A stretch of DNA of 64,000 bases. It comes from Candidatus Omnitrophota bacterium (GTDB lineage Bacteria > Omnitrophota > Gorgyraeia > Duberdicusellales > 4484-171). The DNA is taken from positions 239 through 64,238 of the forward strand of contig JAAEQW010000150.1 in assembly GCA_024231025.1 (NCBI GenBank). Reading direction: 5' to 3'. Under the pieces are notes generated by a model that saw only the letters and a program-made list of their open reading frames with translations, did not search any database and was not told where the DNA came from. Every line of letters begins with the position of its first letter. Position 1 is the first letter of the stretch. The translations under genes were made by a program, and so were the position numbers. Positions 43,094-57,801 of this stretch are shown here, piece after piece.

Positions 43094-43148
43094 ATGTTTT
43101 AAAGGTGGCAATTGCAGTGATTTTGCTGCACAATTGAGGAGGTTTTCG

Positions 43149-46100
43149 ATGATACTATTTTTACAAAAGAGAAAAGCGTCGGTTCCATTCAAAGTTACAG
43201 TGTTTTTAGCAATGGGAATTTTTCTGCTGGGCACCTTTATGATGCAGACCAATAAAGTTCCTAAAGCATATGCTTCCGCCTTGCCGTATATGGCGGCACC
43301 GACCGAACTTATTGATACAACCGCAAATTTTAACCCGGTAGTTTTGCGCGGGATAAAATTTGATACCAACAATCCCTTTAAATTCAATTTTATTCTTGAT
43401 GAAGGCGATACTGCCCTTAGCGACGGCGAACTGAAAAAGGAAGTAGAAAAGATCGCTCGCCAATTTCTTGCGGCGATAACTGTTCCCGAAGAGGATTTAT
43501 GGGTTAACCTTTCTCCATTGGAAAAAGATAGAATTATTTCTGATGAGCTAAGCGTAACCGATATTGGACGTGACCTTTTAGGTGAAGATTACGTTCTAAA
43601 ACAATTAACTTCGTCTTTAACTTATCCGGAAAGTCCGCTTGGTAAAGAGTATTGGAAAAAGATTTACACTCGGACCCAAGAAATGTATGGCACAACTGAC
43701 GTGCCAATTAATACCTTTAACAAAGTTTGGATTACTCCTAAGCATGCGGTAATTTACGAAAATGCCCAAGGCGCATATATTGGTGAGAGCCATCTAAAGG
43801 TAATGTTGGAACAGGATTACCTTGCCCAAGAACAAAACATCGCAGGGGCACAGCGTGATGTGCCCTCTGAAAAACAAATCAATAATATTTCCGCCCAAAT
43901 AACCAAAGAAGTAATTTTGCCGGTAATCGAGAACGAAGTAAATTACGGGAAAAGCTTCTCGCATTTGCGTCAAATTTATCATTCGGTGCTTTTAGCCTCG
44001 TGGTTTAAAAAGAAACTAAAACAGACTATTCTTAATGATATCTACGTTGATAAGAAAAAGATTGCCGGAGTTGACACCAGCGACCCCCAGATTAAGGAAA
44101 AAGTATACAACCAATATTTAGAAGCTTACAAAAAAGGTGTCTATAATTATATTCGCCGTGATTCTGATTTTACCACAAAAAGAAAAGTTAATCGTCGTTA
44201 CTATTCTGGCGGAACTGATCTGGTGGTTGGCCCAACAACTACGACTAAGTCTGGTACCGATCCTTTGGCTCCAGGTGTTGGCGGGGCTTCAAAGGGTGAA
44301 GTAAGTGAGGCTGGAGTTACAACCGAAGGCATTGACAATAAACCTGGGCCGGATATGGCCGCTGCAGCGATTCCGCATGGTCGGACTAATAAGGGGATAT
44401 CAGGCGCAATCGAAGGTAATACTGTTACTCGTCAAAAGGCAAATGGAAGCTACGCAAAAGAGGTTTTTGATGCTGAGAAAGCGCCTAAAGACAGTTCGGT
44501 AATAACTAAGGCCGACGTGCGTGATGTTCCACAGTTAGCCGGATCAATTACCGAATTAATTCATAACTACAGAGACATAATTACTTTCGACCTTGATAGC
44601 GCAGGAAGAATGGTCAATGTTCAACTCCCCACGGACCTCACAGATAATCTTCGTATACTTGATTTAGCGCGTGAACTTTCAGTTGTTCAACCTGATCCGC
44701 AAGTGCGCCGCATGGCTTTTCATTTAGCTGCGGCAATTCAACGTGCGCGCGGAAAACTTTCTCCAAATGTTAGAAATGTATCGTTACTCCAGCCATTTAC
44801 CGATGGCGTTTTAAGAGGTATTCCGGCAGATAATTTACGCTGCGGTGGGGCGATGGAGCAAGCTGCTCTTGGGCGAGCAGCAGATAAAGCTAACGCGGTT
44901 ATTGCGGCTGAAATTGCCATGTCTGAGCTGATCTATTCTGGGCTTTTGGATTTATTTGATTTTGTTGGTCATGTATATCTTGGTGATGCTTTTGCTGGCC
45001 GTGATGCTTCAACTCCTACGCAGCTTGATCATCTTCAAGCTAAATTGTCAGAAATATTTGCTTTAGATAAGACGAAGGCTCTAATTGCAGCGGCGTCCGA
45101 TGAACTGTCGGTTGATGGTTACGAGGAGAAAATTTGGGCGAAAATGCCTCTTGTTGAACGCGAGAGTTCAGGGATGATTGATAAGGCGCGGCGAGAAGCA
45201 GAAATGCAGAAAATATTCGGCATACTTACCTTAGCCGCTGAAGCAGGAATTACCCATTTCGATATTGATTTTTCAACTCTGGCGGATCAAGTTCTAATGG
45301 AAGCCCTTTACCGAGGTGCGCACACTGATGATAATCCTAATGGTTTTAGTCCAAGCATGAAGATGCTAATCGATAAGATCAAGAGCTCTCCATCAATGGA
45401 AGTGGCGGTTGCATGGGTTAGAGATAAGGGTGAGGTTTCTGATGATAAGCTTTGGGAGTTGTATAGTCCCAAGCGTCAGGCAGCATCTGAGAAAATTCAG
45501 GTATTTAATGCCAAATTTAGCGCAAAGGCAATCGTCCACCAAAGAATAGAAGAGGCGAAAGCAATAAGGGCCGGATATTTACCGGAAGGGTTTCGTGCCC
45601 TTTCTGGTGTTGAAGATGCACATACTGATTTAAAGTTTCTTGAGAATAAACCGAGTGAGCCGGAATCAGTTGTTGCATTTTTGCTTATGTTGCGTCGTGA
45701 GTTATTAGAAGCGAATAAACAGTTTAAAGCAGATTACGGTTACGATTTACCTGAGTTAACCGCAATTAAATGGAGTCCGAAAACCGGAACTTCACATGGT
45801 ACCGCGGGGATAGAGGCCAATATCGGTGTTTTTGCGTTGGCGGAAAGGTATCTTGCCTTGCCGCAAGTGAAAGAAATCCTCGGCGGTGAGTTTGTCCTAA
45901 TAAGGGGTCAGCATGGAGCCTCTAAATGTACTACCGATCAGTACGCAGATATGGGTCGAAATGCTGAGGATATTCACTTTGCGACTGGAATAGCTAACAA
46001 ATTTTCCGGAACAATGGCCGAAGAATTTAACATAATGACCGATACTGTGGGGGATTTACTGCAGTTGCTTTTAAAGCCTGATCGAGCGAATATTACCGAT

Positions 46101-49100
46101 CGCCTTAACGCGTATTTAGAGGTTATTGGTAAGGATGCGGATTGGCTGATGGATTACGTTACGCTGCCTGGAGTTGAAGCCAAAATCAAAAGATTTCGTT
46201 CGGCTGAATTTGGCGGGAAAAATGATGCCCAAACAAAGTTTTTCAATATCTTAGCTAAGGAGGGCATAACTTCATATACTCTCGAAGGCCGCAGGAGACT
46301 TACCCATCTTATTCTTACCGACCCTGAGGAGGGTGTTCCTAGTGATGCAAGAAGTAAACTGAAAGATTTAGTAAAGCATGTTTACAGACCACTTTTACCC
46401 TACTTTCTTAGTATGCCGCAAGAATTACGGGATCCGGTTATGAACGCGGTGCAGGCCTGGATGGGAGACGCAATAAATGAGTTAGGTATTGCAGATAGTT
46501 TTGATAAGCTTGTACCATATTTACCTCAAGAACCTTTGGTTTTGCGCCCGATTCCTGCCGATTTTGTTGCGGAAGCTCAAGAAGCAGTGCAGCAAAGCTT
46601 GCCGCTGATTGAACAAATCGACAATGGATTTGCGCAAGCGAGAGAGGCTTTTGATGGTGGCGAATATCAGCTAGCATTTACCAGAGTCGATAAGGCAATA
46701 GAACTTTTGATGAGACCTGAAAAATTCGACGCAAAAGATGATCCGCTAACCGGCGTCAGTAACCCTAATGAAATTTTAAGTCTGTTAAATAGTTTAGGAT
46801 CAAAGCGCCAATTATATCCTCGTCAAGAAGACCTTCAGGGTTTTCTTCACGCAGGCATAAATGGGCTGGATTTGATTAATGGCTTAAGAAAGCTAAATGG
46901 TTTCAAGCTAATAATCGAAGAAGTCGACCCTCAAGACGTGCCGCTGATTGAACAAATCGATGGCTTGTTTGTCGAAGCGAAAAAAGCTCTTGCGAAGGGT
47001 GAGGATCAGTTAGCATATACCAAGGTCGAGGAGGCAACAACACTTTTGACACGGCCTCTCGATTTCGACACAAGTGATGATCCACTAACCGGCCTCAGTA
47101 ATCCCGATGAGGTTTTAAAACTATTAAATAGCTTAAAGCTTCAACGGTCTCGTCGTCAAAGCGCCCTTTGGCGCTTGCTTGGCCAACGTTTAAATGGATT
47201 GGATTTAATTAACGGGTTAAGGATGGCAATTGGTTTTGGGGTAATAACCGAAGAAGTCGATCCTCAAGACCTGCCGCTGACTAATAAACAAATAGACAGT
47301 TTTTTTGATAGAGCCGAAGAACATTCTAAACATGGAAGAGATTCCTATGCACTTAAAGAAATTGATAAGGCAATAGAACTTTTGAAATGGCCTGAAAAAT
47401 TTGATGCAAAGGGTAACCCGCTAGTCGGCATCAGTAACCCCGATGGAGTTCAACACCTATTAAGTGCGATAGAGACAGGAGGGTACACATTATCTTTTAG
47501 TGAGGAAGCTCTTAAACTTCTTCTTGATGAAGGTGCAAGCGGATTAGAATTAGTTAATGGTTTGAGAGAGATAGATAGGCTCGATCCAATAGCAAAAAAA
47601 GCTGACCCTCAAGATCTGCCGCTGATTGAACAAATCGACAATGGATTTACCGAAGCGAGAGAAGCTTTTGATAGTGGCGAATATCAGCTAGCATTTACCA
47701 GAGTCGATAAGGTAGCAGAACTTTTGAGACGGCCTTACGATTTTGACGTAAGTAATGATCCACTAACCGGCCTCAGTAACCCTAATGAAGTTTTGATGCT
47801 GTTAAATGATTTAGAATTAAATGTTGGATTATCGCATCGTCAAAAAGCGCTTAAGGATTTTATTGGTCAAGGTAGAAACGGATTGGACTTAATTAATTGC
47901 CTAAGAATGGCAGTTGGTTATGGGGTAATAATCGCGAAAGCTGGCAGCGCTGCTGCCAACGGGTCGGTTGTTTTAGAGAAGAAAAATAAGGTTGCAATTA
48001 ATGGCGGCGGCAGAATCGGCATGTTGAGTTTGCGCGTGTGGATTATGAAAAAAATGCACGGAGAGCCAACCGATCTTGATGTTGTAGCGATGAATGATTT
48101 GCAGTCACCCCAGCAGCTAGCTTACAAACTTAAGTACGATTCTAATCATGGAGAGCTTAAGGATGTTGGAATCGATGTGGTCGAAGAGGGAAATGATAAC
48201 TTTTTGGTTATCAATGCTGAAGGAATCAATAATCATAGAATTCAATTATTTTCAGAAAGAGATCCGACACAGCTGCCATGGGGACAACTAGGTATTGGTC
48301 AAGTGTGGGAGTGTACCGGAATATTTAGAGATAAAGAAGCGGCTGATTTGCATCGTCAAGCGGGAGCCAAAAAAGTTATTGTTAGCGCTCCGGGCAAAGG
48401 GCTTCCAACTATAGTTTTCGGAGTGAACCAAGGTATTTATGATCCAGCGAAGCATGACATAGTTTCGAACGCATCGTGCACAACCAATGATCTTGCTCCG
48501 GTGATTAAGGTCTTAAATGATACACTTGGAGTTCAGTCGGCAATGATGAATACAACGCATGCTACAACTAATGATCAGAAAGTAGGTGACGCTCCGCACA
48601 GCGATCCTTATCGATCAAGAGGCGCTATCGGTGCGATGATAATACCTACCATCACAGGGGCAGCTAAAACTACTGGCAAAGTAATACCTGAATTGGATGG
48701 AAAAATAGATGGAGCTTCACTTCGTATTCCTACTAAAACTGTTTCAGCGACGACGATAACAATCAATGTGAAAAAAGACACAACAGTAGCAGAAGTTAAC
48801 GCAATTTTAAAGGAAGCATCAGAGACTGAGGGATTAAAAGGTATTCTTGCTTATACCGATGAGAAAAAAGTTGGGGTGGATTTTCTTACTGATCCACATT
48901 CATCAACGGTTGCCGGAGACTTCACTAAAGTTGTTGTCGGTACGATGGTGCAAGTACTTTCTTGGTACGATAATGAATGGGGTTTTGCCAATCGCATGGT
49001 TGATCTTGGTGAGCATATGGCAGATGCCGATTTCGCCTTTGCTGAGAAAGAAATTGTGCAGGAGACAGCGCATGATACATTTGTAAAAAATGAATTAAAG

Positions 49101-50723
49101 TATCTTCGTCGGAAAGGTGGAGAAATTGAACAGGCGGCTGAGGCAGCGGACCTATCGCGTATTGCTACGGCGTTGAATCGTAGCGAAAAGGATCTCAAAA
49201 ACGCGGCGCTATATGTTGCTAAGTTTATTGATATCTTAACCGTAGAGGGCAGGCTGGCAATTGGTGAGGGATTACCTTTCTTGCACGCGCGCAAAGGTAT
49301 ATTTGATCTTTTTTATAGATGGAATCTTTCAGAATCAGCAATTACAACTGGTATTCAGCTCTTTCTTCATAAGGAAATCACATCCGAGCAGCGCGGTCGA
49401 GCGATATTTCACGATGCTTTGCATGTTGTTGTTCCAAAGTCGCTGCGCCACCCCACAGAAGAAGAAATAGAAAATGGTGCGGTAGATCCTTTCCCGACAG
49501 ATCAGGACATTAAAGATCACCTTGTTGAACTTTCTAAAAATTTAGGAGAAAAACCACCAACCAGCACCGGCGCTTACGACATGGCGGCTGCGCAATCAAG
49601 CCAGCTGAATTTGGAAGAAACTACTTGTCAAGGTGGCAATTGGAAGAGGCATCTTGAGAACAGAAAAGAGGCTAAAGAAAAAATAGACCGTTTTGAAAAA
49701 AAGTTCAGAAATGGAATACCTGAAGGAGCATGGGCGGGTATTGCGGTGCAAAATGAGTATGTTGCGATGGCAGGCGCAGCATGGAAAGATTCTGCTCTTG
49801 AAGCTGGTGTCCAATCAATATTCTTTAGAGTGGAAGAAAATCAGGAAAATGTTGTGAGGTATTTGAAGCGGCGGATTCAAGAAGCAGTAGATGCTGGTGC
49901 AACTTGGGCCAATATTGCCCATTCAATACATCGAGCAATGGGTAAAGGATTAACCGATCTTGATGCCAATATCTTAATGCATGCCATACTTAATGATGGT
50001 CGTTTAATGCCTTGGTACACTGTTGAAGTATCTGACGGAGGTGATGTAAACGGAAGAACCACTCAACAAGAAATAGATGACGCGGTAAATATTGGTTTAG
50101 CCGGTATTACTGCAGAGCAGCTATTGGGCGTTCCGATTACTATTGAACCAACCAGAGACATTAGCACTCCAGCTGAAGGTAAAGCAGTTAATCTTGTTGA
50201 GTTGGATACAGAAAAGATTAAAAAAAGAGTTGATATGCTACGTTTAGCTTTAATTGTAAAATACGGTGATATTGCCAGGCGTTTTAATGTTGGTTATGGG
50301 GCTAGTATCGCCAGAAAAAACGCGCGAGCAATCTTTAGCATTCCTGGTGTCAACAATGGTTTAGCTGGTGGAGAAAGTCAAAATGAAGATGTATTCATGG
50401 AAGTAATAGAGAAGGCTCAGCAGGGAGTTGAAGACTTGGCTCTTTATCAGGCAGAGGATATTGGCGAGATTAATGAAACAGATTCTTCCGATGAGCAAGA
50501 GGATTATAATGCAGCAGAGAGATCGTTTGGTGGAATTAATTTAGATGGTGAAATTGACCTGCGCGGTGATGGACAATTTAACATCGACCTTTATGATATT
50601 CCTTTTGACATTAAGACTTTTAAAGGGTTGGCACCTTTGGTAAGCAAGATGAAGCGTGATCAGGACCCGAAGAGTTTCTTTGCGTCAAAGCAACCGCAAC
50701 AAGAACTCTCTTACGCGCATTAA
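43149..50723 (+). CDS. giant exported multidomain protein (2,524 aa): signal peptide, N-domain, G/T/P linker, unknown region with weak class-II-aldolase-like segment, 4 x ~112-aa repeats, GAPDH homologue, linker, triosephosphate-isomerase homologue, acidic tail
   Basis: Uninterrupted ORF; GAGGAGG sits 6 nt before the ATG at 43149. The N-terminal h-region is VTVFLAMGIFLLGTFMM with a predicted cleavage site AYA|SA. GAPDH motifs: KVAINGGGRIG, KYDSNHGE, AGAKKVIVSAPGK, SNASCTTNDLAP, TTHATT, IIPTITGAAK, SWYDNEWGF. TPI motifs: GNWKRH, AGATWANIAHSIHR, IEP, GYGAS-x21-GGES. Terminators flank both ends. Confidence 0.8.
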   Translation: MILFLQKRKASVPFKVTVFLAMGIFLLGTFMMQTNKVPKAYASALPYMAAPTELIDTTANFNPVVLRGIKFDTNNPFKFNFILDEGDTALSDGELKKEVEKIARQFLAAITVPEEDLWVNLSPLEKDRIISDELSVTDIGRDLLGEDYVLKQLTSSLTYPESPLGKEYWKKIYTRTQEMYGTTDVPINTFNKVWITPKHAVIYENAQGAYIGESHLKVMLEQDYLAQEQNIAGAQRDVPSEKQINNISAQITKEVILPVIENEVNYGKSFSHLRQIYHSVLLASWFKKKLKQTILNDIYVDKKKIAGVDTSDPQIKEKVYNQYLEAYKKGVYNYIRRDSDFTTKRKVNRRYYSGGTDLVVGPTTTTKSGTDPLAPGVGGASKGEVSEAGVTTEGIDNKPGPDMAAAAIPHGRTNKGISGAIEGNTVTRQKANGSYAKEVFDAEKAPKDSSVITKADVRDVPQLAGSITELIHNYRDIITFDLDSAGRMVNVQLPTDLTDNLRILDLARELSVVQPDPQVRRMAFHLAAAIQRARGKLSPNVRNVSLLQPFTDGVLRGIPADNLRCGGAMEQAALGRAADKANAVIAAEIAMSELIYSGLLDLFDFVGHVYLGDAFAGRDASTPTQLDHLQAKLSEIFALDKTKALIAAASDELSVDGYEEKIWAKMPLVERESSGMIDKARREAEMQKIFGILTLAAEAGITHFDIDFSTLADQVLMEALYRGAHTDDNPNGFSPSMKMLIDKIKSSPSMEVAVAWVRDKGEVSDDKLWELYSPKRQAASEKIQVFNAKFSAKAIVHQRIEEAKAIRAGYLPEGFRALSGVEDAHTDLKFLENKPSEPESVVAFLLMLRRELLEANKQFKADYGYDLPELTAIKWSPKTGTSHGTAGIEANIGVFALAERYLALPQVKEILGGEFVLIRGQHGASKCTTDQYADMGRNAEDIHFATGIANKFSGTMAEEFNIMTDTVGDLLQLLLKPDRANITDRLNAYLEVIGKDADWLMDYVTLPGVEAKIKRFRSAEFGGKNDAQTKFFNILAKEGITSYTLEGRRRLTHLILTDPEEGVPSDARSKLKDLVKHVYRPLLPYFLSMPQELRDPVMNAVQAWMGDAINELGIADSFDKLVPYLPQEPLVLRPIPADFVAEAQEAVQQSLPLIEQIDNGFAQAREAFDGGEYQLAFTRVDKAIELLMRPEKFDAKDDPLTGVSNPNEILSLLNSLGSKRQLYPRQEDLQGFLHAGINGLDLINGLRKLNGFKLIIEEVDPQDVPLIEQIDGLFVEAKKALAKGEDQLAYTKVEEATTLLTRPLDFDTSDDPLTGLSNPDEVLKLLNSLKLQRSRRQSALWRLLGQRLNGLDLINGLRMAIGFGVITEEVDPQDLPLTNKQIDSFFDRAEEHSKHGRDSYALKEIDKAIELLKWPEKFDAKGNPLVGISNPDGVQHLLSAIETGGYTLSFSEEALKLLLDEGASGLELVNGLREIDRLDPIAKKADPQDLPLIEQIDNGFTEAREAFDSGEYQLAFTRVDKVAELLRRPYDFDVSNDPLTGLSNPNEVLMLLNDLELNVGLSHRQKALKDFIGQGRNGLDLINCLRMAVGYGVIIAKAGSAAANGSVVLEKKNKVAINGGGRIGMLSLRVWIMKKMHGEPTDLDVVAMNDLQSPQQLAYKLKYDSNHGELKDVGIDVVEEGNDNFLVINAEGINNHRIQLFSERDPTQLPWGQLGIGQVWECTGIFRDKEAADLHRQAGAKKVIVSAPGKGLPTIVFGVNQGIYDPAKHDIVSNASCTTNDLAPVIKVLNDTLGVQSAMMNTTHATTNDQKVGDAPHSDPYRSRGAIGAMIIPTITGAAKTTGKVIPELDGKIDGASLRIPTKTVSATTITINVKKDTTVAEVNAILKEASETEGLKGILAYTDEKKVGVDFLTDPHSSTVAGDFTKVVVGTMVQVLSWYDNEWGFANRMVDLGEHMADADFAFAEKEIVQETAHDTFVKNELKYLRRKGGEIEQAAEAADLSRIATALNRSEKDLKNAALYVAKFIDILTVEGRLAIGEGLPFLHARKGIFDLFYRWNLSESAITTGIQLFLHKEITSEQRGRAIFHDALHVVVPKSLRHPTEEEIENGAVDPFPTDQDIKDHLVELSKNLGEKPPTSTGAYDMAAAQSSQLNLEETTCQGGNWKRHLENRKEAKEKIDRFEKKFRNGIPEGAWAGIAVQNEYVAMAGAAWKDSALEAGVQSIFFRVEENQENVVRYLKRRIQEAVDAGATWANIAHSIHRAMGKGLTDLDANILMHAILNDGRLMPWYTVEVSDGGDVNGRTTQQEIDDAVNIGLAGITAEQLLGVPITIEPTRDISTPAEGKAVNLVELDTEKIKKRVDMLRLALIVKYGDIARRFNVGYGASIARKNARAIFSIPGVNNGLAGGESQNEDVFMEVIEKAQQGVEDLALYQAEDIGEINETDSSDEQEDYNAAERSFGGINLDGEIDLRGDGQFNIDLYDIPFDIKTFKGLAPLVSKMKRDQDPKSFFASKQPQQELSYAH

Positions 50724-50932: not shown

Positions 50933-51250
50933 ATGCCTAATCATATTTACGCCATTGCTATAATCAAAAATAATATCATAAAGGGCCGACAGCCATCGGC
51001 CCCTACGGATAAAATTAATCAAAAACAATTATTATCATCATTCGTCGCCGGTTTTAAATCCGTGGCAGCAAAACGTATCAACACCTTACGTAATACACCA
51101 GGAAATCCTATTTGGCAACGTAATTATTATGACCATATTATTCGTGATGATAAATCTTTGCAGAAAATTCGCGAATACATTACCGGCAATCCGGTTATGT
51201 GGGATACCGACGAAAATAATATTATTAATCACAATAGGAGGCAGATATGA
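50933..51250 (+). mobile_element. truncated REP-associated tyrosine transposase (RAYT / IS200-like Y1 transposase) remnant, C-terminal ~2/3 only
   Basis: Carries the C-terminal block NPIWQRNYYDHIIRDDKSLQKIREYITGNPVMW. A degenerate HuH site reads HIYAIAI where a histidine-x-histidine pair would be expected. The N-terminal beta-strand region is missing. A REP-like hairpin lies inside its 5' end and another lies upstream. Confidence 0.5.
50982..51006. repeat. REP-like hairpin, reverse-complement copy (AGGGCCGACAGCCATCGGCCCCTAC)
   Basis: Exact reverse complement of 50810-50834. It is embedded in the 5' end of the RAYT-remnant ORF, encoding KGRQPSAPT. Confidence 0.6.
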
Positions 51251-51907: not shown

Positions 51908-54900
51908 ATGTGTTTGAATACCCCTAATTTTCCTGAAGTTGTAGTAGTCGAGGCATCTGCCGGTTCCGGTAAAACCTATTGCCTTGCTAAGCGTTATCTG
52001 CAACTATTTATGAATCCTAAAATACCCCCGGAGTGTATTTCTTTGCGCGATATTCTTGCGATTACTTTTACCAATAAAGCAACGATTGAAATGAAAGAAA
52101 GAATTCTTGAGTTTTTAAAGCGTATTGCCTTTGACGATTTTTCAAACAAAGAACAGGAAAAAGATATTTACGATTCGCTTGGGGTCGATAAAAAGTTTGC
52201 CAGGGAGCGCGCCAATTTAATTATGGATAAGCTCATTAGCCACTATAATTTTTTCCAGGTTAAAACAATCGACAGTTTTATTAACGCGCTTCTTTTGGGT
52301 TGTGCTTTGCGTATTGACCGTTCGGCAAGCTTTAGCATAAAACGCGATTATTCCAAAATACTTGCCTACTGCTTAGATCTTGTTATTGAAAGAGCCGCCA
52401 ATGAAGCAGAAGTATTAAATTCTTTTGAAGAGTTTTTGGCGCATTATTTGTTTGTTGAAAATCGAAACGGTTGGTTTCCAAAAGATGATATCCTGCAATT
52501 GATGCACTCATTATTTCGATTAAGTAATAAGTATGGCGGAATATTTAGAGAGTATCGTGGCCGAAGTGTTGAAGCGATAAAGAAAAAGGGAATTGTTTTT
52601 AAGCAGATAGAAGAACTTTCAAAAAAAATTCCTCCAGGAATGAACGCAGCCACTACTAAAGCAATAAATCGGTTCATTAGCCGGGGCGATAAGTTTGATA
52701 TATCTGATCTACCAAAAAAGTTTAGCGATTCAGTTGTGCCAATGAATAAGGGCAAAGTTTGCGATAAGCACTTTAGTAAAAAGTGGAGCGCAACTGGCAA
52801 AAGCATTAAAGAGCTGGTTGAGAGTTGCGCAACAACAGCATACAATCCATATGTAAAACTTTATGGGATGTTGCTTGATTCTTTTAGTGAGGTTTGTAAA
52901 AGAGAAGATGTATTATTTTTAGAAGAGCTCAACCGCAAAGCGCGCCTACTTTTTGACGAAGACGGCTTCACCGTTGCCGAGCTCTACTATCGGCTAGCCA
53001 CCAGATTTAAACACTATTTAATTGATGAATTCCAAGACACAAGCATTTTGCAATGGCAAAATCTTCGCCTTATGATTGAAGAAGCTCTATCTTGCGGGGG
53101 GTCGCTGTTCTATGTTGGCGACAAAAAACAAGCAATTTATCGGTTTCGCGGTGGAGAAGCGAAGCTATTTGACTCGGTTAAGAGAGATTTTACCCATTTC
53201 AATGTTAAGGGGGCTTTTCTTGATAAGAATTGGCGCAGTCAAAAGGAAATAGTTGAATTTAATAATCAGGTGTTTTCGAAAGAAAATTTGAATAGTTTTC
53301 TAAAAGCATCTGGAATTAATGAAAAAATTGGCGATGCAAAAGAAATTCTTGATGTTTTTAAAGATGATAAACAGCAGTATTGCCAAGGCAGCGGCGATGG
53401 CTATGTGTGCATCGAACGCGTTGACGCTGAAAATCAAAGTCAGCGTAATGAAGTGGTGCAAAGTAAGATTTTAATTTTGCTGGATGATTTAAGCAAACGT
53501 TTTAGTTTTTCGGACATTGCAATACTCACTCGCGATAATAATGAGACCGAGCTTGTTACATCATGGCTTTTGACAAAGAATTTGCCGGTTGAATCAGAAA
53601 AAACTCTAAACATTTTAAAACACTCACAAATCAAAGAAATTATTGCATTTCTTAACTTTTTACATTCTCCAATTGATAATTTAAATTTTGCCGCCTTTAT
53701 TCTTGGTGATATTTTTACTACTGCATCAGGGCTGTCTTCTGAGGATGTGCGGGATTTTATTTTTTCTTTACGTAAAAAAAATACAGAAGCCGCACTCTAT
53801 GCGTTATTTCGCAAACAATACCCTGTAATTTGGGAAAAATATATTGAACCATTTTTTAGAAGTGTTGGCTTTATATCGGTATATGAATTATTGACAAATA
53901 TTTATCAGCGCTTGAATGTAATTAAAAATTTTAAAGAGAGTCAGGCGTTTTTTATGAAACTTCTAGAATTGGCAAAAGCTAAAGAAGAAGATTGCCTCGG
54001 ATTAGATGAACTACTTACTTTTTTAAAAGATGCTTCGGCCGATGATTTATATGTTAATGTCATTGGCAGTGAGGCAATAAAAGTTCTTACTGTGCATAAA
54101 TCTAAAGGATTAGAATTTGGTGTAGTTATTGTGCCGTTTTTTCGTATTGATATAACACCGGAAACTGGCGGAAGAGGAACAAAATCATACATTGAAGACG
54201 AGGAAGCCGGTGATTTGGGCCTTTTGCGCATTGTTGAAGATTATCGCCTGTATTGTGAAAAGCTTAACTCCATATACATTAGAGATTACAAAAAGTCATG
54301 CATTGATGAGCTAAATAATACTTATGTTGCCTTAACCAGATCTAAATATGAGCTCTATGTGTTTATTCCCAAAAAAAGCGCAAATGCCATCAATAAGGCC
54401 GGTTTTCTTATTCCGGAAGATATTAAAGAACGTGGCGAGAAAAAAACATATCAAATAGTTAAGAGAGAAAAAAACTATCAAATAATTGATGCTGGCCCGT
54501 ATGCTCATTGTGACTGGTCGTCGCTTTTAAGCGGAGAGTTCACCTTAGACCGCCGCCAGAGAATTGTTGAAGGTAATATTTTGCACCTAATGTTATCTGT
54601 AATAGGCGATTGTACCGGTAAAAGTGATGAGGAAATAGTGCGACTGGCGTGTAAGCGCGCGCAATTAGAGCACTCTTTTGATGAAAAACGTTATTGTGAA
54701 AAGATAAAACAATTAATTAGCAAAGATGAGCTAAAAACTATTTTCTATCCGCAAGCAGAAGTGTTTTGTGAAAAGGAATTTATAAGTGTTTTTGGTGATG
54801 CCAAACGCATTGACCGCCTTATTGTTTGGGAAAAAGAAGCCTGGATTATTGATTATAAATTGACCAAAGACAACCAAGCCAATTATCGCAACCAGATTAA

Positions 54901-54997
54901 AGAGTATGCGGGCATTCTTGGCCAGATTTATAAGGATAAAAAAATAAGAAGTTTTTTAGTTTATCTGGATAATTTAGAAAAAGAAGAAGTGCAATGA
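51908..54997 (+). CDS. addA: AddA/RecB-like ATP-dependent helicase-nuclease (UvrD-family helicase + C-terminal PD-(D/E)XK nuclease)
   Basis: Helicase motifs EASAGSGKT, DEFQDTS, VGDKKQAIYRFRGG, NWRSQ and VHKSKGLEF. C-terminal nuclease motif IDRLIV...IIDYKLTKD. Confidence 0.75.
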   Translation: MCLNTPNFPEVVVVEASAGSGKTYCLAKRYLQLFMNPKIPPECISLRDILAITFTNKATIEMKERILEFLKRIAFDDFSNKEQEKDIYDSLGVDKKFARERANLIMDKLISHYNFFQVKTIDSFINALLLGCALRIDRSASFSIKRDYSKILAYCLDLVIERAANEAEVLNSFEEFLAHYLFVENRNGWFPKDDILQLMHSLFRLSNKYGGIFREYRGRSVEAIKKKGIVFKQIEELSKKIPPGMNAATTKAINRFISRGDKFDISDLPKKFSDSVVPMNKGKVCDKHFSKKWSATGKSIKELVESCATTAYNPYVKLYGMLLDSFSEVCKREDVLFLEELNRKARLLFDEDGFTVAELYYRLATRFKHYLIDEFQDTSILQWQNLRLMIEEALSCGGSLFYVGDKKQAIYRFRGGEAKLFDSVKRDFTHFNVKGAFLDKNWRSQKEIVEFNNQVFSKENLNSFLKASGINEKIGDAKEILDVFKDDKQQYCQGSGDGYVCIERVDAENQSQRNEVVQSKILILLDDLSKRFSFSDIAILTRDNNETELVTSWLLTKNLPVESEKTLNILKHSQIKEIIAFLNFLHSPIDNLNFAAFILGDIFTTASGLSSEDVRDFIFSLRKKNTEAALYALFRKQYPVIWEKYIEPFFRSVGFISVYELLTNIYQRLNVIKNFKESQAFFMKLLELAKAKEEDCLGLDELLTFLKDASADDLYVNVIGSEAIKVLTVHKSKGLEFGVVIVPFFRIDITPETGGRGTKSYIEDEEAGDLGLLRIVEDYRLYCEKLNSIYIRDYKKSCIDELNNTYVALTRSKYELYVFIPKKSANAINKAGFLIPEDIKERGEKKTYQIVKREKNYQIIDAGPYAHCDWSSLLSGEFTLDRRQRIVEGNILHLMLSVIGDCTGKSDEEIVRLACKRAQLEHSFDEKRYCEKIKQLISKDELKTIFYPQAEVFCEKEFISVFGDAKRIDRLIVWEKEAWIIDYKLTKDNQANYRNQIKEYAGILGQIYKDKKIRSFLVYLDNLEKEEVQ

Positions 54998-57801
54998 GCG
55001 ATGTTATTACGTATAGCTTTAAAGACAATTTTATAGAAAAACTTTCTGATTTTCTTTATGATGACTTTTATAAAAAAGGTAAGTCGCTGGAGCGGGTTGC
55101 GTGTTGTTTTGGGGGAAAACGGCCGGCTTTATTCTTGCGTAAAGCGCTTAGCCGCAAAATCAAAACAAGCTATATTGGCCCGAGTGTATTTTCAATTGAT
55201 GAGTTTATAAACTATACTATTTCGCCAACAGCCCCCATAAAGCAGATAACCAGCCTTGACTCAAGCTTTTTGATTTATAGTTTAGCTAAAAAGCATGCCC
55301 CCGATATATTAAAAGGGCGCGATAATTTTGCTGAGTTTTTGCCCTGGGCCAGGGAGATAATTTCTTTTATTGAGCAAATTGACTGCGAAGATGTTGAAAG
55401 TAAAAATTTAGTCAATATTGAGAAAAGTGCTGATATTGGATATGAAATACCCGATAGCATAAATGCTTTGCTAAAGCACATTATAAAGCTGCGCAAATAT
55501 TATCACCAATCTTTAAGTGAGCAGGATCTTTATTCGAGGGGAACCAAATATCTTAAGGCAAAGGAAAAAGCTATTACCAATAGTTTTGACTCATTTGATA
55601 AAATCATATTTTGTAACTTCTTTTATATTAATTCTTCCGAAGCCGGGCTTATGAAAGCAATCCGCAGCAAGGGAAAGGGGATTTTTATTTTTCAGGGCAG
55701 CCAAGATGATTGGTCGGTGCTTGGTAAAAATGCCAAGAATTTTGGTGTACCAATTACTTGTCCCAAGCCCGCAATGGGTGATTTTAAACTTTATCAGGCT
55801 TTTGATATTCATTCTCAAGTTGCCGCAGTTAACGAGATAGTAAAAGCCGGCCCATGCGATAACACAGTTATAGTTTTGCCGCGTTCGGAGGTAGTTATCC
55901 CATTATTAACGCAGGTAAATTTGGGCAGTGAGTTTAATGTTTCAATGGGGTACCCATTGCGCCTGAGTCCGCTTTATGCTTTATTTAACTTATTAGCTAA
56001 AGCACAAGAAAATAAAAAAAATGGTAAGTATTATACCCGCGATTACTTAAATGTTCTTCGTCACCCATTGATTAAAAACCTTAAAATTACCTCCAGCGAA
56101 ATAATTAGCCGTGTGCTTATCCACAAATTGGAAGAGTCACTTTGCGGCTTCGATGAAACATCGATTGGCGGTAGCCTTTTTTTAAGTTTAGATGAAATTG
56201 AAGCAGAAGAAAAAATATTTCTACTTACCAAAGAGACCCTCAGTAATATGAAAACAGAGGCGAGCATTGAGGAATGTCGGCTTACTTTAAAGGAAATACA
56301 TTCTTTGGTTTTGCGTCAATGGGAAGGGGTTAACACTTTTGTGAAGTTTGCCGAAAATATGGGTGCTCTTTTAGACGTGTTGGTCGACAAAAGCATACTT
56401 TATAAGTTTGCTTTTAATTCGAAAGTTATTAACAGACTCTACGGCGTCAAAGATGATTTAGAAAATTTATCATTTTGCAACGAACACTTCCAGTCTGGTC
56501 AACTCTGGGACATATTTGGCCAGTTTTTACAAGGCGATAAGCTTTCTTTTTCCGGGTCACCGTTACGGGGTATGCAAGTTTTAGGGCTCTTTGAAACTCG
56601 ATCACTTAATTTTGATAATGTTATTATTGTTGATGCTAACGAGTCGGTGTTGCCCAAATTAAAAATATATGAACCATTGATTCCTCGTGAGGTAATGCTG
56701 AATCTTGGCCTAAACCGTCTTGAAAAAGAGGAAGAAATTCAGCGTTATCAATTTATGCGTTTGATTGCATCTGCTAAGGGCGTTCATTTAATTTATGAGG
56801 AAAGCTCCAATAAGGAAAGAAGCCGTTTTATCGAAGAGCTAATATGGAACAAGCAGAAACAAAGCGCTAAGTTAATGGCGATTCCCCCGCAGAAGATGAG
56901 TTTTGAAGTTAAAGTTTGCAGCAACGACAAAGTAATTGAGAAGACACCGGAGATGGTGCAATACTTAAGGCAAGCGACTTATTCAGCAAGCAGAATTAAT
57001 ACTTATTTGAGTTGTCCGTTAAATTTTTATTACAACTATTGCTTAGGACTAAAGGAAAAAAAAGATTCACTTGATGATCCTCAGGCCTCAACGGTGGGAA
57101 CTTTTATTCATGAACTTCTGGAAGATGTTTTCAGCCGGTTTCTCAGCACTCAACCAATTATTGATAAGGCGTTTCGCGTTTATTTTTTTAAAAGAATGGA
57201 TGAGCGCTTTAAGCATCAACTTACGCGTAGAATGAAGTCGGATTCATTTTTACTGAAAAAAATTATGACCATTCGAATGAACAAATTCTTAGATGCAGAA
57301 AGCAAGCGTAACGTTAAGCGCGTTATTTGTCTTGAAAAGAAAATAAAAGATACCATGACAATAATGGGCAATGATATTGAGTTTGTTTATACTGCCGATA
57401 GGGTTGACGAGCTCGGTGATGATAGTATAGTAATTATAGACTATAAAACCGGCGCAAGTAATATTGTCCCTAAAAAATTAAAGGCATTAGAGGCAATGGA
57501 AATGACACGTCCGTCGATTAAGGAAAATATACGTTCTTTTCAATTGCCGTTGTACTATTATTTTACTGAGAAGCAATACCCAGAACGTTCAATTAACGCT
57601 GAACTGTACAATTTAAGAACTACCGAACGTAAACCTTTTATATCTGATGCTAATCGCGCCTCGGTAGATAAGATGATGCAGGCTTGCAATAAAGCTTTGG
57701 AGTGTATTTTTTCTGATATTTTTGATATAAATGTACCGTTTGTCGCCGACAAAAACGAAAGGCGTTGTAGATTTTGCCCGTTTACAATGTTTTGTGAATA
57801 A
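54994..57801 (+). CDS. addB: AddB-like nuclease subunit with PD-(D/E)XK domain and Cys4 iron-sulfur cluster staple
   Basis: No functional Walker A. C-terminal DRVDEL...IIDYKTG nuclease motif. Cys pattern C-P...CRFCPFTMFC (1 + CxxCx5C) as in AddB. Translationally coupled to addA. Confidence 0.7.
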   Translation: MSDVITYSFKDNFIEKLSDFLYDDFYKKGKSLERVACCFGGKRPALFLRKALSRKIKTSYIGPSVFSIDEFINYTISPTAPIKQITSLDSSFLIYSLAKKHAPDILKGRDNFAEFLPWAREIISFIEQIDCEDVESKNLVNIEKSADIGYEIPDSINALLKHIIKLRKYYHQSLSEQDLYSRGTKYLKAKEKAITNSFDSFDKIIFCNFFYINSSEAGLMKAIRSKGKGIFIFQGSQDDWSVLGKNAKNFGVPITCPKPAMGDFKLYQAFDIHSQVAAVNEIVKAGPCDNTVIVLPRSEVVIPLLTQVNLGSEFNVSMGYPLRLSPLYALFNLLAKAQENKKNGKYYTRDYLNVLRHPLIKNLKITSSEIISRVLIHKLEESLCGFDETSIGGSLFLSLDEIEAEEKIFLLTKETLSNMKTEASIEECRLTLKEIHSLVLRQWEGVNTFVKFAENMGALLDVLVDKSILYKFAFNSKVINRLYGVKDDLENLSFCNEHFQSGQLWDIFGQFLQGDKLSFSGSPLRGMQVLGLFETRSLNFDNVIIVDANESVLPKLKIYEPLIPREVMLNLGLNRLEKEEEIQRYQFMRLIASAKGVHLIYEESSNKERSRFIEELIWNKQKQSAKLMAIPPQKMSFEVKVCSNDKVIEKTPEMVQYLRQATYSASRINTYLSCPLNFYYNYCLGLKEKKDSLDDPQASTVGTFIHELLEDVFSRFLSTQPIIDKAFRVYFFKRMDERFKHQLTRRMKSDSFLLKKIMTIRMNKFLDAESKRNVKRVICLEKKIKDTMTIMGNDIEFVYTADRVDELGDDSIVIIDYKTGASNIVPKKLKALEAMEMTRPSIKENIRSFQLPLYYYFTEKQYPERSINAELYNLRTTERKPFISDANRASVDKMMQACNKALECIFSDIFDINVPFVADKNERRCRFCPFTMFCE

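Follow-up and report, generated by a model that had tools for sequence, protein, structure and literature searches.

Does the C-terminal part of a large protein from an Omnitrophota bacterium form a working triosephosphate isomerase (TPI, also abbreviated TIM), and what would such an enzyme do beside glyceraldehyde-3-phosphate dehydrogenase (GAPDH) in the same polypeptide? The question is raised by a 64,000-nucleotide stretch of DNA from Candidatus Omnitrophota bacterium (contig JAAEQW010000150.1; hereafter the window), in which a single uninterrupted open reading frame (ORF) of 2529 codons occupies positions 43134..50723 of the + strand. All features of this ORF given below lie on the + strand. 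The encoded 2529-aa protein, called the host protein here, is 100% identical to a 2524-aa NCBI entry (P0001, GY858_04105, 'hypothetical protein') from a Candidatus Omnitrophica bacterium metagenome-assembled genome (MAG). The annotated protein is shorter by five residues, and its start is therefore implied at ATG 43149. Three Pfam families scored above threshold in the whole host protein: Gp_dh_N and Gp_dh_C, which belong to the GAPDH module, and TIM, which matched a domain at aa 2165-2435 (49626..50438). Our reading, to which we give a probability of roughly 60%, is that this domain is an active TPI of a divergent kind. It would follow the classical mechanism, with Glu as the base and His as the electrophile, under a lengthened lid and without the canonical dimer, beside aldolase-like and GAPDH modules.

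The domain was assigned to the TPI family of (beta/alpha)8 barrels by Pfam, by PDB sequences, by a custom hidden Markov model (HMM) and by a structural model. The TIM profile PF00121 matched aa 2168-2427 (nt 49635-50414), with positions 5-244 of its 245 aligned. The whole protein scored 35.4 bits (E=1.1e-8), and a scan of the C-terminal 390 aa alone gave 40.8 bits (E=2.5e-10), compared with a gathering cut-off of 20.1. This bears out the preliminary description of the locus, which had recognized a TPI homologue from its motifs and had named PF00121 as the profile to search. A phmmer search of all PDB sequences returned essentially only TPIs, with 7n8u as the best match (4.1e-10). When an HMM of 20 canonical TPIs of ~255 aa was run against the six-frame translation of the window, this ORF alone matched (6.6e-25), and no canonical tpiA was found in the 64 kb. 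The AlphaFold2 model of aa 2160-2440 showed an eight-fold beta/alpha barrel, with a mean predicted local distance difference test score (pLDDT) of 91.9 and a predicted template modelling score (pTM) of 0.91. The top 50 PDB matches of this model in Foldseek were TPIs and the TPI-family paralogue L-erythrulose-1-phosphate isomerase (LerI), with template modelling (TM) scores of 0.70-0.85; the best match had E=1.5e-19 and TM 0.80/0.84. The identity of the domain to canonical TPIs is 19-27%. This low value, and nothing else, would suggest that the resemblance arose by chance or through faulty assembly or annotation. Such an explanation is contradicted by the independent significant Pfam, PDB, custom-HMM and fold-search scores, by the continuous ORF with its identical NCBI protein and by homologues in other assemblies; it was rejected on these grounds as having next to no probability. 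The homology is genuine and well beyond chance.

The catalytic residues were then located. The TPI motifs lie at aa 2167-2171 (GGNWK), 2262-2267 (AHSIHR), 2336-2345 (TIEPTRDIST), 2387-2391 (GYGAS) and 2410-2415 (LAGGES), so that all motif regions quoted in the preliminary description (GNWK, AHSIHR, TIEPTRDIST, GYGAS, LAGGES) are present in the ORF. Its proposal of Asn, Lys, His and Glu equivalents also held, as N2169, K2171, H2263 and E2338 took these positions in the alignment with canonical TPIs. In the model, N/K, H, E, YGAS and GG stand directly after beta-1, -4, -6, -7 and -8, matching TPI. Loop 7 is YGAS 2388-2391, with one Gly-to-Ala change from YGGS that is found subfamily-wide, and the loop 8 glycines are GG 2412-2413. 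The distance from the Tyr of YGxS to the GlyGly had been claimed to equal that of canonical TPI, and it does, being 24 in the query and in 20/20 aligned canonical TPIs. Beside the tetrad, P166, I170, Y208, S211, L230 and G232-G233 are retained and are invariant or nearly so in the subfamily described below. The active-site residues of TIM are listed in the literature as N11, K13, H95, E97, E167, P168, I172, Y210, S213, L232 and T75' (PMC10249627); 9/11 of them are retained in the query, the missing two being E97 and T75'. Thus, the domain resembles canonical TpiA (PF00121; PDB 7n8u, 2btm, 4iot) in its (beta/alpha)8 fold and in having the four catalytic residues at the same strand ends, whereas canonical TpiA is a ~250-aa homodimer subunit and the query domain is embedded in a 2529-aa protein.

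In the mechanism that we infer, the domain would convert dihydroxyacetone phosphate into glyceraldehyde 3-phosphate and back. The base would be Glu2338, located where beta-6 ends. His2263, at the end of beta-4, together with Asn2169 and Lys2171, after beta-1, would stabilize the enediolate. Three elements would grip the phosphate, namely loop 7 (YGAS), the Gly-Gly of loop 8 and the longer flexible loop 6 lid.

The relatives of the domain were collected in an exhaustive HMMER search over 1.84 billion cluster representatives, which returned 43 proteins at E<=1e-3. Thirteen clusters, between 2.9e-44 and 1e-19, form a distinct subfamily; below them is a clear score gap, and the ordinary ~255-aa TPIs begin at 6e-10. 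Word-index searches with the TPI domain or the subfamily profile returned almost nothing and missed even the identical parent protein, which we attribute to their handling of domain queries against long proteins, not to a lack of relatives. Subfamily members are 31-51% identical to the query. They carry GGNWK versus the canonical GNWK, GHSMHR versus GHSERR, GYGAS versus YGGS and N-[AI]-L-x-GG-x-S versus G-x-L-V-GG-A-S, with T-x-EP-[TS]-x-x-IST-x-x-G-x-G in place of the canonical lid, and they are without the loop-3 GAxTGE motif. N2169, K2171, H2263 and E2338 are invariant in every member covering those columns. The invariance of the tetrad and the phosphate grippers at 31-51% identity argues for continued selection on catalysis.

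The members whose source is named are from Omnitrophota, namely P0166 (Omnitrophica WOR_2 GWA2_47_8) and P0131 (NCBI 'triose-phosphate isomerase, partial'). A scan of 185,579 GTDB species representatives with the subfamily pattern found three loci, two in Omnitrophota MAGs and one in a MAG labelled 'uncultured Planctomycetales'. In the last of these the domain is part of an ORF that spans all 6,387 bases of that locus (>2,100 codons) and is open at both ends. One member is a complete stand-alone protein of 289 aa (P0129; L005 650-1846). To judge from these proteins, the subfamily is a small divergent TPI lineage, associated with Omnitrophota as far as its members can be named and mostly present as a module in large multi-enzyme proteins.

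The enzymes that share a polypeptide with the subfamily domain bear on its substrate. Enzymes of glycolysis or gluconeogenesis are its partners in 8/10 multi-domain proteins examined, the host protein counted. The partner is phosphoglycerate kinase (PGK) in P0121 and P0127, PGK with enolase in P0126, pyruvate phosphate dikinase in P0128, class II aldolase in P0132 and fructose bisphosphate (FBP) aldolase/phosphatase in P0004. In P0122, class II aldolase, GAPDH, isocitrate lyase and malate synthase are all present. The overwhelming share of partners by which triose phosphates are produced or used (aldolase, GAPDH, FBP aldolase/phosphatase, PGK) speaks against an isomerase of the TPI family acting on another small ketose or aldose phosphate, whose altered specificity would then explain the changes in loop 6, at Glu97 and in loop 3; so do the unchanged phosphate grippers and four catalytic residues. 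On the other side, the model is matched by L-erythrulose-1-phosphate isomerase (11eg/11ef; TM 0.75/0.84) and by TPIs about equally well, and the second shell and the lid differ systematically across the subfamily. Moreover, the gene directly downstream of the stand-alone P0129, read by eye from its translation (MKIYLGADHRGF...), looks like ribose-5-phosphate isomerase B (rpiB), so that this member would adjoin a gene for another sugar-phosphate isomerase. Altogether we regard altered specificity as unlikely compared with an active TPI.

One of the fusions is metabolically odd. At L003 4483-6858, in Omnitrophota UBA10183, a 791-aa protein joins a signal-like N-terminus, proline dehydrogenase and the divergent TPI. 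The gene adjoins an AbiEi/AbiEii toxin-antitoxin pair.

Several observations weigh against an active TPI. The NCBIfam TpiA equivalogs NF000722 and NF012036 gave 18.9 and 20.0 bits, whereas their cut-offs lie at 293 and 509. The structural model backs the fold, not the fine active-site geometry, and its alignment contained canonical TPIs. In the remodelled loop 6 (aa ~2340-2358, 50151..50207), the sequence EPTRDISTPAEG replaces the canonical lid; the AIGTG motif is absent, Trp168 is changed to Arg and Gly171 to Ser, and ~19 residues run from beta-6 to helix 6 in the model versus 11 in the canonical loop 6. Glu97, which is near-universal in TPI and ion-paired to Lys13, corresponds to I2265 in the query and to Met in relatives. 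The query also lacks the loop-3 GAxTGE motif, and K2245 stands in the Thr75 column. TIM monomers, engineered monomeric TIM included, are inactive or ~1000-fold impaired (PMC10249627). Co-occurrence with triose-phosphate enzymes is not strict, as the domain is combined in P0124 with a methyltransferase and in L003 with proline dehydrogenase, both unrelated to triose phosphates. Finally, the N-terminus of the host protein resembles a signal peptide (described below), and a signal peptide would put enzymes that depend on NAD and sugar phosphates outside the cytoplasm, where their substrates are not obviously present.

The lid had been described at first as shortened, with four to five residues missing around the AIGTG phosphate loop. 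This did not stand up to the spacing comparison, and the deleted-loop reading was rejected, as loop 6 is longer, not shorter. Between the catalytic Glu and the Tyr of YGxS, the query has a spacing of 50 residues and the subfamily one of 48-55, compared with 42-44 in 18/20 canonical TPIs, and the loop 6/helix 6 segment exceeds the canonical one by 6-8 residues. Judged by alignment and model, the lid is rewritten and lengthened. Loop 6 was also the sole low-confidence stretch of the TPI model, as expected of a mobile lid. Pompliano, Peyman and Knowles reportedly observed in 1990 that loop-6 deletion mutants of TIM leak methylglyoxal. An altered lid might likewise release the enediol phosphate, which would then eliminate phosphate. 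Toxic methylglyoxal would in this way be made from the triose phosphates of prey, and a predatory or epibiotic Omnitrophota cell would use the protein as an effector. The remodelled loop 6 and the signal-peptide-like N-terminus are consistent with this idea, and Omnitrophota have been proposed to be predators or parasites. However, the lid is longer rather than absent, and the hinge Pro, the clamp Ile and the loop-7 Tyr/Ser lock are conserved. Fusion to GAPDH and PGK suggests productive flux. We therefore hold a methylglyoxal effector to be very improbable.

TPI is the textbook 'perfect' enzyme, and its activity is thought to depend on the dimer, with a hydrogen-bond network of Q65/N11/K13/E97/T75' that reaches the second subunit. 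In the divergent domain, Glu97 and Thr75' are replaced lineage-wide, which suggests that it would function without the canonical homodimer, as a module of a long polypeptide. Further substitutions relative to canonical TPI are Arg98 to His, Glu104 to Leu and Cys126 to Thr. That the residues coupled to the dimer were lost in a coordinated way hints at a solution that needs no dimer. E97 and T75' connect N11 and K13 to the second subunit (PMC10249627). Like the query, the artificial monoTIM has lost the dimer contacts of loop 3 by which Asn11 and Lys13 are held in position. In contrast to monoTIM, which is ~1000-fold impaired, the changes in the query are natural and lineage-conserved and are accompanied by putative compensating substitutions.

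The same losses could also indicate a dead or crippled module of TPI fold that is kept for binding, scaffolding or assembly. With Glu97 and Thr75' gone, a monomeric state would be expected to cripple TIM (PMC10249627). Moreover, the second-class TIM domains described below have no recognizable GNWK, so that such modules seem to degenerate, and partner domains are sometimes metabolically unrelated. Against this, the invariance of N, K, H, E and the phosphate loops at 31-51% identity would be hard to explain without selection for catalysis, and a stand-alone copy of the gene exists. A dead module thus appears doubtful to us, and an active TPI is preferred. A natural lineage that keeps the tetrad and the phosphate grippers but has Glu97 and Thr75' replaced and the lid lengthened offers a ready test of which features are required, and it might represent a naturally monomeric TIM. 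The finding gains weight if the domain is an active monomeric TIM. If it is an accessory or crippled copy, it would amount to ordinary domain shuffling in the large-protein family of Omnitrophota.

The modules that precede the domain in the host protein were also characterized. The GAPDH module, probably of type I, at aa 1617-1964 (47982..49025) was identified by Pfam and by its motifs, with Gp_dh_N at aa 1619-1734 (1.7e-22) and Gp_dh_C at aa 1787-1945 (1.2e-48). TIGR01534 gave 352.9 bits, slightly below its cut-off of 367.2. The NAD-binding motif INGGGRIG lies at 1622-1629, the catalytic Cys in SNASCTTN at 1778-1785 and the His in TTHATT at 1807-1812. TPI is thus downstream of GAPDH in one polypeptide, as the preliminary description had stated. 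A linker of ~200 aa (49026..49613) separates GAPDH from TPI; it is also present in the same-MAG paralogues P0005 (twice) and P0006 and matches no known domain.

Upstream of GAPDH, the region of ~700 aa at aa ~450-1150 (44481..46583) appears from homology and motifs to be a metal-dependent bisphosphate aldolase of class II that carries large insertions. It had no direct Pfam or PDB match. It is homologous to aa 2197-2852 of P0122 (4e-87), which hold a PF01116 match, and a profile of four sequences of the region matched tagatose/fructose-bisphosphate aldolases in PDB (1gvf, 5.9e-4). The motifs PADNLR 564-569, QLDHLQ 630-635, GTSHG 885-889 and QHGAS 926-930 were found, in which we take DH, GTxHG and QHGxS to be the class II metal-ligand histidine motifs. 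If this assignment is right, the host protein holds three consecutive reactions, namely FBP cleavage, triose interconversion and glyceraldehyde 3-phosphate oxidation. With an aldolase-like module, TPI and GAPDH forming three consecutive steps of glycolysis, both trioses of FBP could pass to GAPDH. Between the aldolase-like and GAPDH modules, protein-level comparison revealed four tandem repeats of ~113 aa (aa 1157-1610, 46602..47963), which start at aa 1157, 1270, 1381 and 1496 and share the pattern PLIEQID...DPLTG.SNP...GLDLINGLR. The repeats match no known domain. Tandem Repeats Finder detected no DNA-level tandem repeat corresponding to them, indicating that the DNA has diverged too far.

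The two ends of the host protein are conserved in a different way from its middle. The N-terminus (43149..43274) is signal-peptide-like, with a basic n-region (KRK), a hydrophobic stretch and then AYA-SA, which looks like a signal-peptidase-I site. The stretch at aa 19-37 is the sole strongly hydrophobic segment in the protein (KD19 = 1.94), and the same KRK/hydrophobic/AYA-type pattern was seen again in homologues. It is followed by a conserved N-terminal module at aa ~48-400 (43275..44333; DLWVNLSP...NTFNKVWI...LRQIY...RRYYSGG), defined by homologous N-termini. The module had no match in Pfam, NCBIfam or PDB sequences, and its model (pLDDT 68.8) had no fold match. At the other end, an acidic linker (50439-50528) precedes a C-terminal family motif (50529..50720; GGINLDGEIDLRGDG...IPFDIKTFKGLAPLV...ELSYAH), which is defined by common C-termini and begins in the host protein at GGINLDG, aa 2466.

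These ends define a large family. A search with the whole protein gave at least 1,696 matches among 8,000 scored candidates. The best 120 of the 1,696 are 1,393-4,390 aa long and come from Omnitrophota wherever a source is named. Family proteins match the query mainly through the N-terminal module, with 44-55% identity in 21 aligned homologues, and at least seven are from the same MAG (GY858 locus tags). Among the best 120, 103 have GGI[DNS] within the final 110 aa. The common form of the tail is GGIDLNP...GFxPVIINIxPxxNLPxxLG, with GGI[DN]L variants that include GGINLDG of the query, and the query C-terminus gave weak phmmer matches to other family C-termini. The family is well over 100 proteins in size and probably exceeds 1,000. 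The middle parts vary. Among glycolytic cargo, class I and class II aldolases, GAPDH, TIM, PGK, enolase, PGM, PGI and FBPase were found; other cargo includes isocitrate lyase with malate synthase, UbiB kinases, M48 peptidases, methyltransferases and HATPase domains. The order is TIM, class I aldolase and GAPDH in P0003, TIM, GAPDH and class I aldolase in P0028, and TIM, GAPDH and DeoC-type aldolase in P0079, and TIM, GAPDH and aldolase are all present among the further domains of P0122. These four combinations indicate that the TIM/GAPDH/aldolase triad is recurrent.

Conserved ends with swapped middles look like a cargo-carrying or sorting system. The signal-peptide-like start, the family-wide N-terminal module and the C-terminal motif suggest that the host protein is probably exported or associated with the surface or membrane. 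A much broader proposal would place a dimer-uncoupled TPI in exported aldolase-GAPDH-TPI cassettes, within a family of more than 100 (probably more than 1,000) proteins that have interchangeable cargo, an N-terminal export or anchor module and a C-terminal sorting motif, and that possibly process or hijack metabolites of prey or host. We consider this proposal rather improbable. The finding would likewise gain weight if such an exported metabolon were true. The host protein provides a tractable three-step example for asking what role and location the enzyme-laden, signal-peptide-bearing large proteins of uncultured, possibly predatory Omnitrophota have.

The preliminary description had called a TPI fold so diverged but catalytically equipped, and fused downstream of GAPDH, unprecedented. 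This claim has to be withdrawn, given the eukaryotic TPI-GAPDH fusions, the giant Omnitrophota proteins reported to hold TPI, and the family proteins P0003, P0028, P0079 and P0122. TPI-GAPDH fusions are widespread in eukaryotes, where they are mitochondrial and occur in stramenopiles and others (PMC3527533). In these, as in the host protein, one polypeptide holds both enzymes; it begins with an N-terminal targeting sequence in the eukaryotic fusions and with the signal-peptide-like N-terminus in the host protein. However, TPI comes first in eukaryotes, whereas the bacterial protein has GAPDH and then TPI, ~200 aa apart, adds aldolase-like and repeat modules and carries a TPI of the divergent type. 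The bifunctional PGK/TPI of Thermotoga (NCBIfam NF010569) is likewise a bacterial fusion of TPI with a glycolytic enzyme, and PGK is also the partner in P0121, P0126 and P0127. Unlike it, the host protein has no PGK module, and the query scored 36.4 bits with that family against a cut-off of 883.

The closest setting is found in Omnitrophota itself. According to a 2023 preprint, giant proteins of this phylum ('Archaeovorins') hold TPI, PGI, FBPase, PGM and aldolase domains; the enzymes are predicted to be extracellular, and the authors warn that this localization may be wrong (West-Roberts et al., bioRxiv 10.1101/2023.11.21.568195). A 2026 preprint describes 'multi-enzyme metabolic' long proteins or clusters and gives 94% as the share of long Omnitrophota proteins with a signal peptide and/or transmembrane helices (bioRxiv 10.64898/2026.06.07.730766). 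The host protein shares with the giants the phylum and the presence of unrelated enzyme domains in one polypeptide. A signal peptide or membrane association is predicted for most of the giants, and the N-terminus of the host protein is signal-peptide-like. It differs in size, with 2,529 aa compared with >=10,000 aa (2026 preprint) or >=30,000 aa (2023 preprint). In the passages searched of either preprint, no mention was found of the N-terminal module, the C-terminal GGIDLNP motif or a distinct TPI subfamily. Within the open-access literature, no description was found of a TPI subfamily with these E97, T75 and loop-6 changes, of an architecture of N-terminal module and C-terminal motif or of a size class of ~2-4 kAA (thousand amino acids). 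The multi-enzyme setting and the TPI-GAPDH fusion are thus already known, and the novelty lies in the TPI variant alone.

Embedded TIM domains of a second class were noticed in P0003, P0028, P0079, P0068 and P0024. These domains keep the canonical GHSE, YEPxWAIG, YGG and DGxLVGG motifs and are positioned right after the N-terminal family module. Their Pfam matches begin at profile position ~47-53 in 4/5 (at 14 in P0003), and the GNWK motif (Asn11/Lys13) was recognizable in 0/5, so they may represent TPI modules that have degenerated or lost their N-terminal part. P0068 is named 'triose-phosphate isomerase' at NCBI.

Isocitrate lyase and malate synthase domains were also seen inside large family proteins (P0068, whose source is Omnitrophica, P0093 and P0122). 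According to the 2026 preprint, KEGG orthology (KO) calls place the glyoxylate shunt in 0/176 complete Omnitrophota genomes, so that it is counted as missing (bioRxiv 10.64898/2026.06.07.730766). Set against this figure, the family proteins suggest that standard pathway annotation may overlook enzyme domains embedded in long proteins.

The genes around the host gene in the window were also inspected. Upstream of it are a riboflavin cluster (ribBA, ribH and ribD) and a PHP-domain gene, preceded by a histidine-biosynthesis gene of the His_biosynth family. Downstream, at 51908-57801, a UvrD-type helicase (1029 aa) and a protein with a PD-(D/E)XK nuclease domain (935 aa) are adjacent and AddAB-like, and an IS200-like fragment, a PilZ protein and an HD hydrolase are also present. 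Reasoning from operon context was dropped, as nothing about function can be read from these neighbouring housekeeping genes. The short ORF at 50933-51250, right after the host gene, matched the C-terminal part only of an IS200-like Y1 transposase profile (E=5e-4, sub-gathering), and it is possibly a mobile-element remnant. The G+C content is 0.42-0.44 in the host gene (44001-50000 of the window) compared with 0.35-0.41 in the rest of the window, a shift that may reflect amino-acid composition or a different history.

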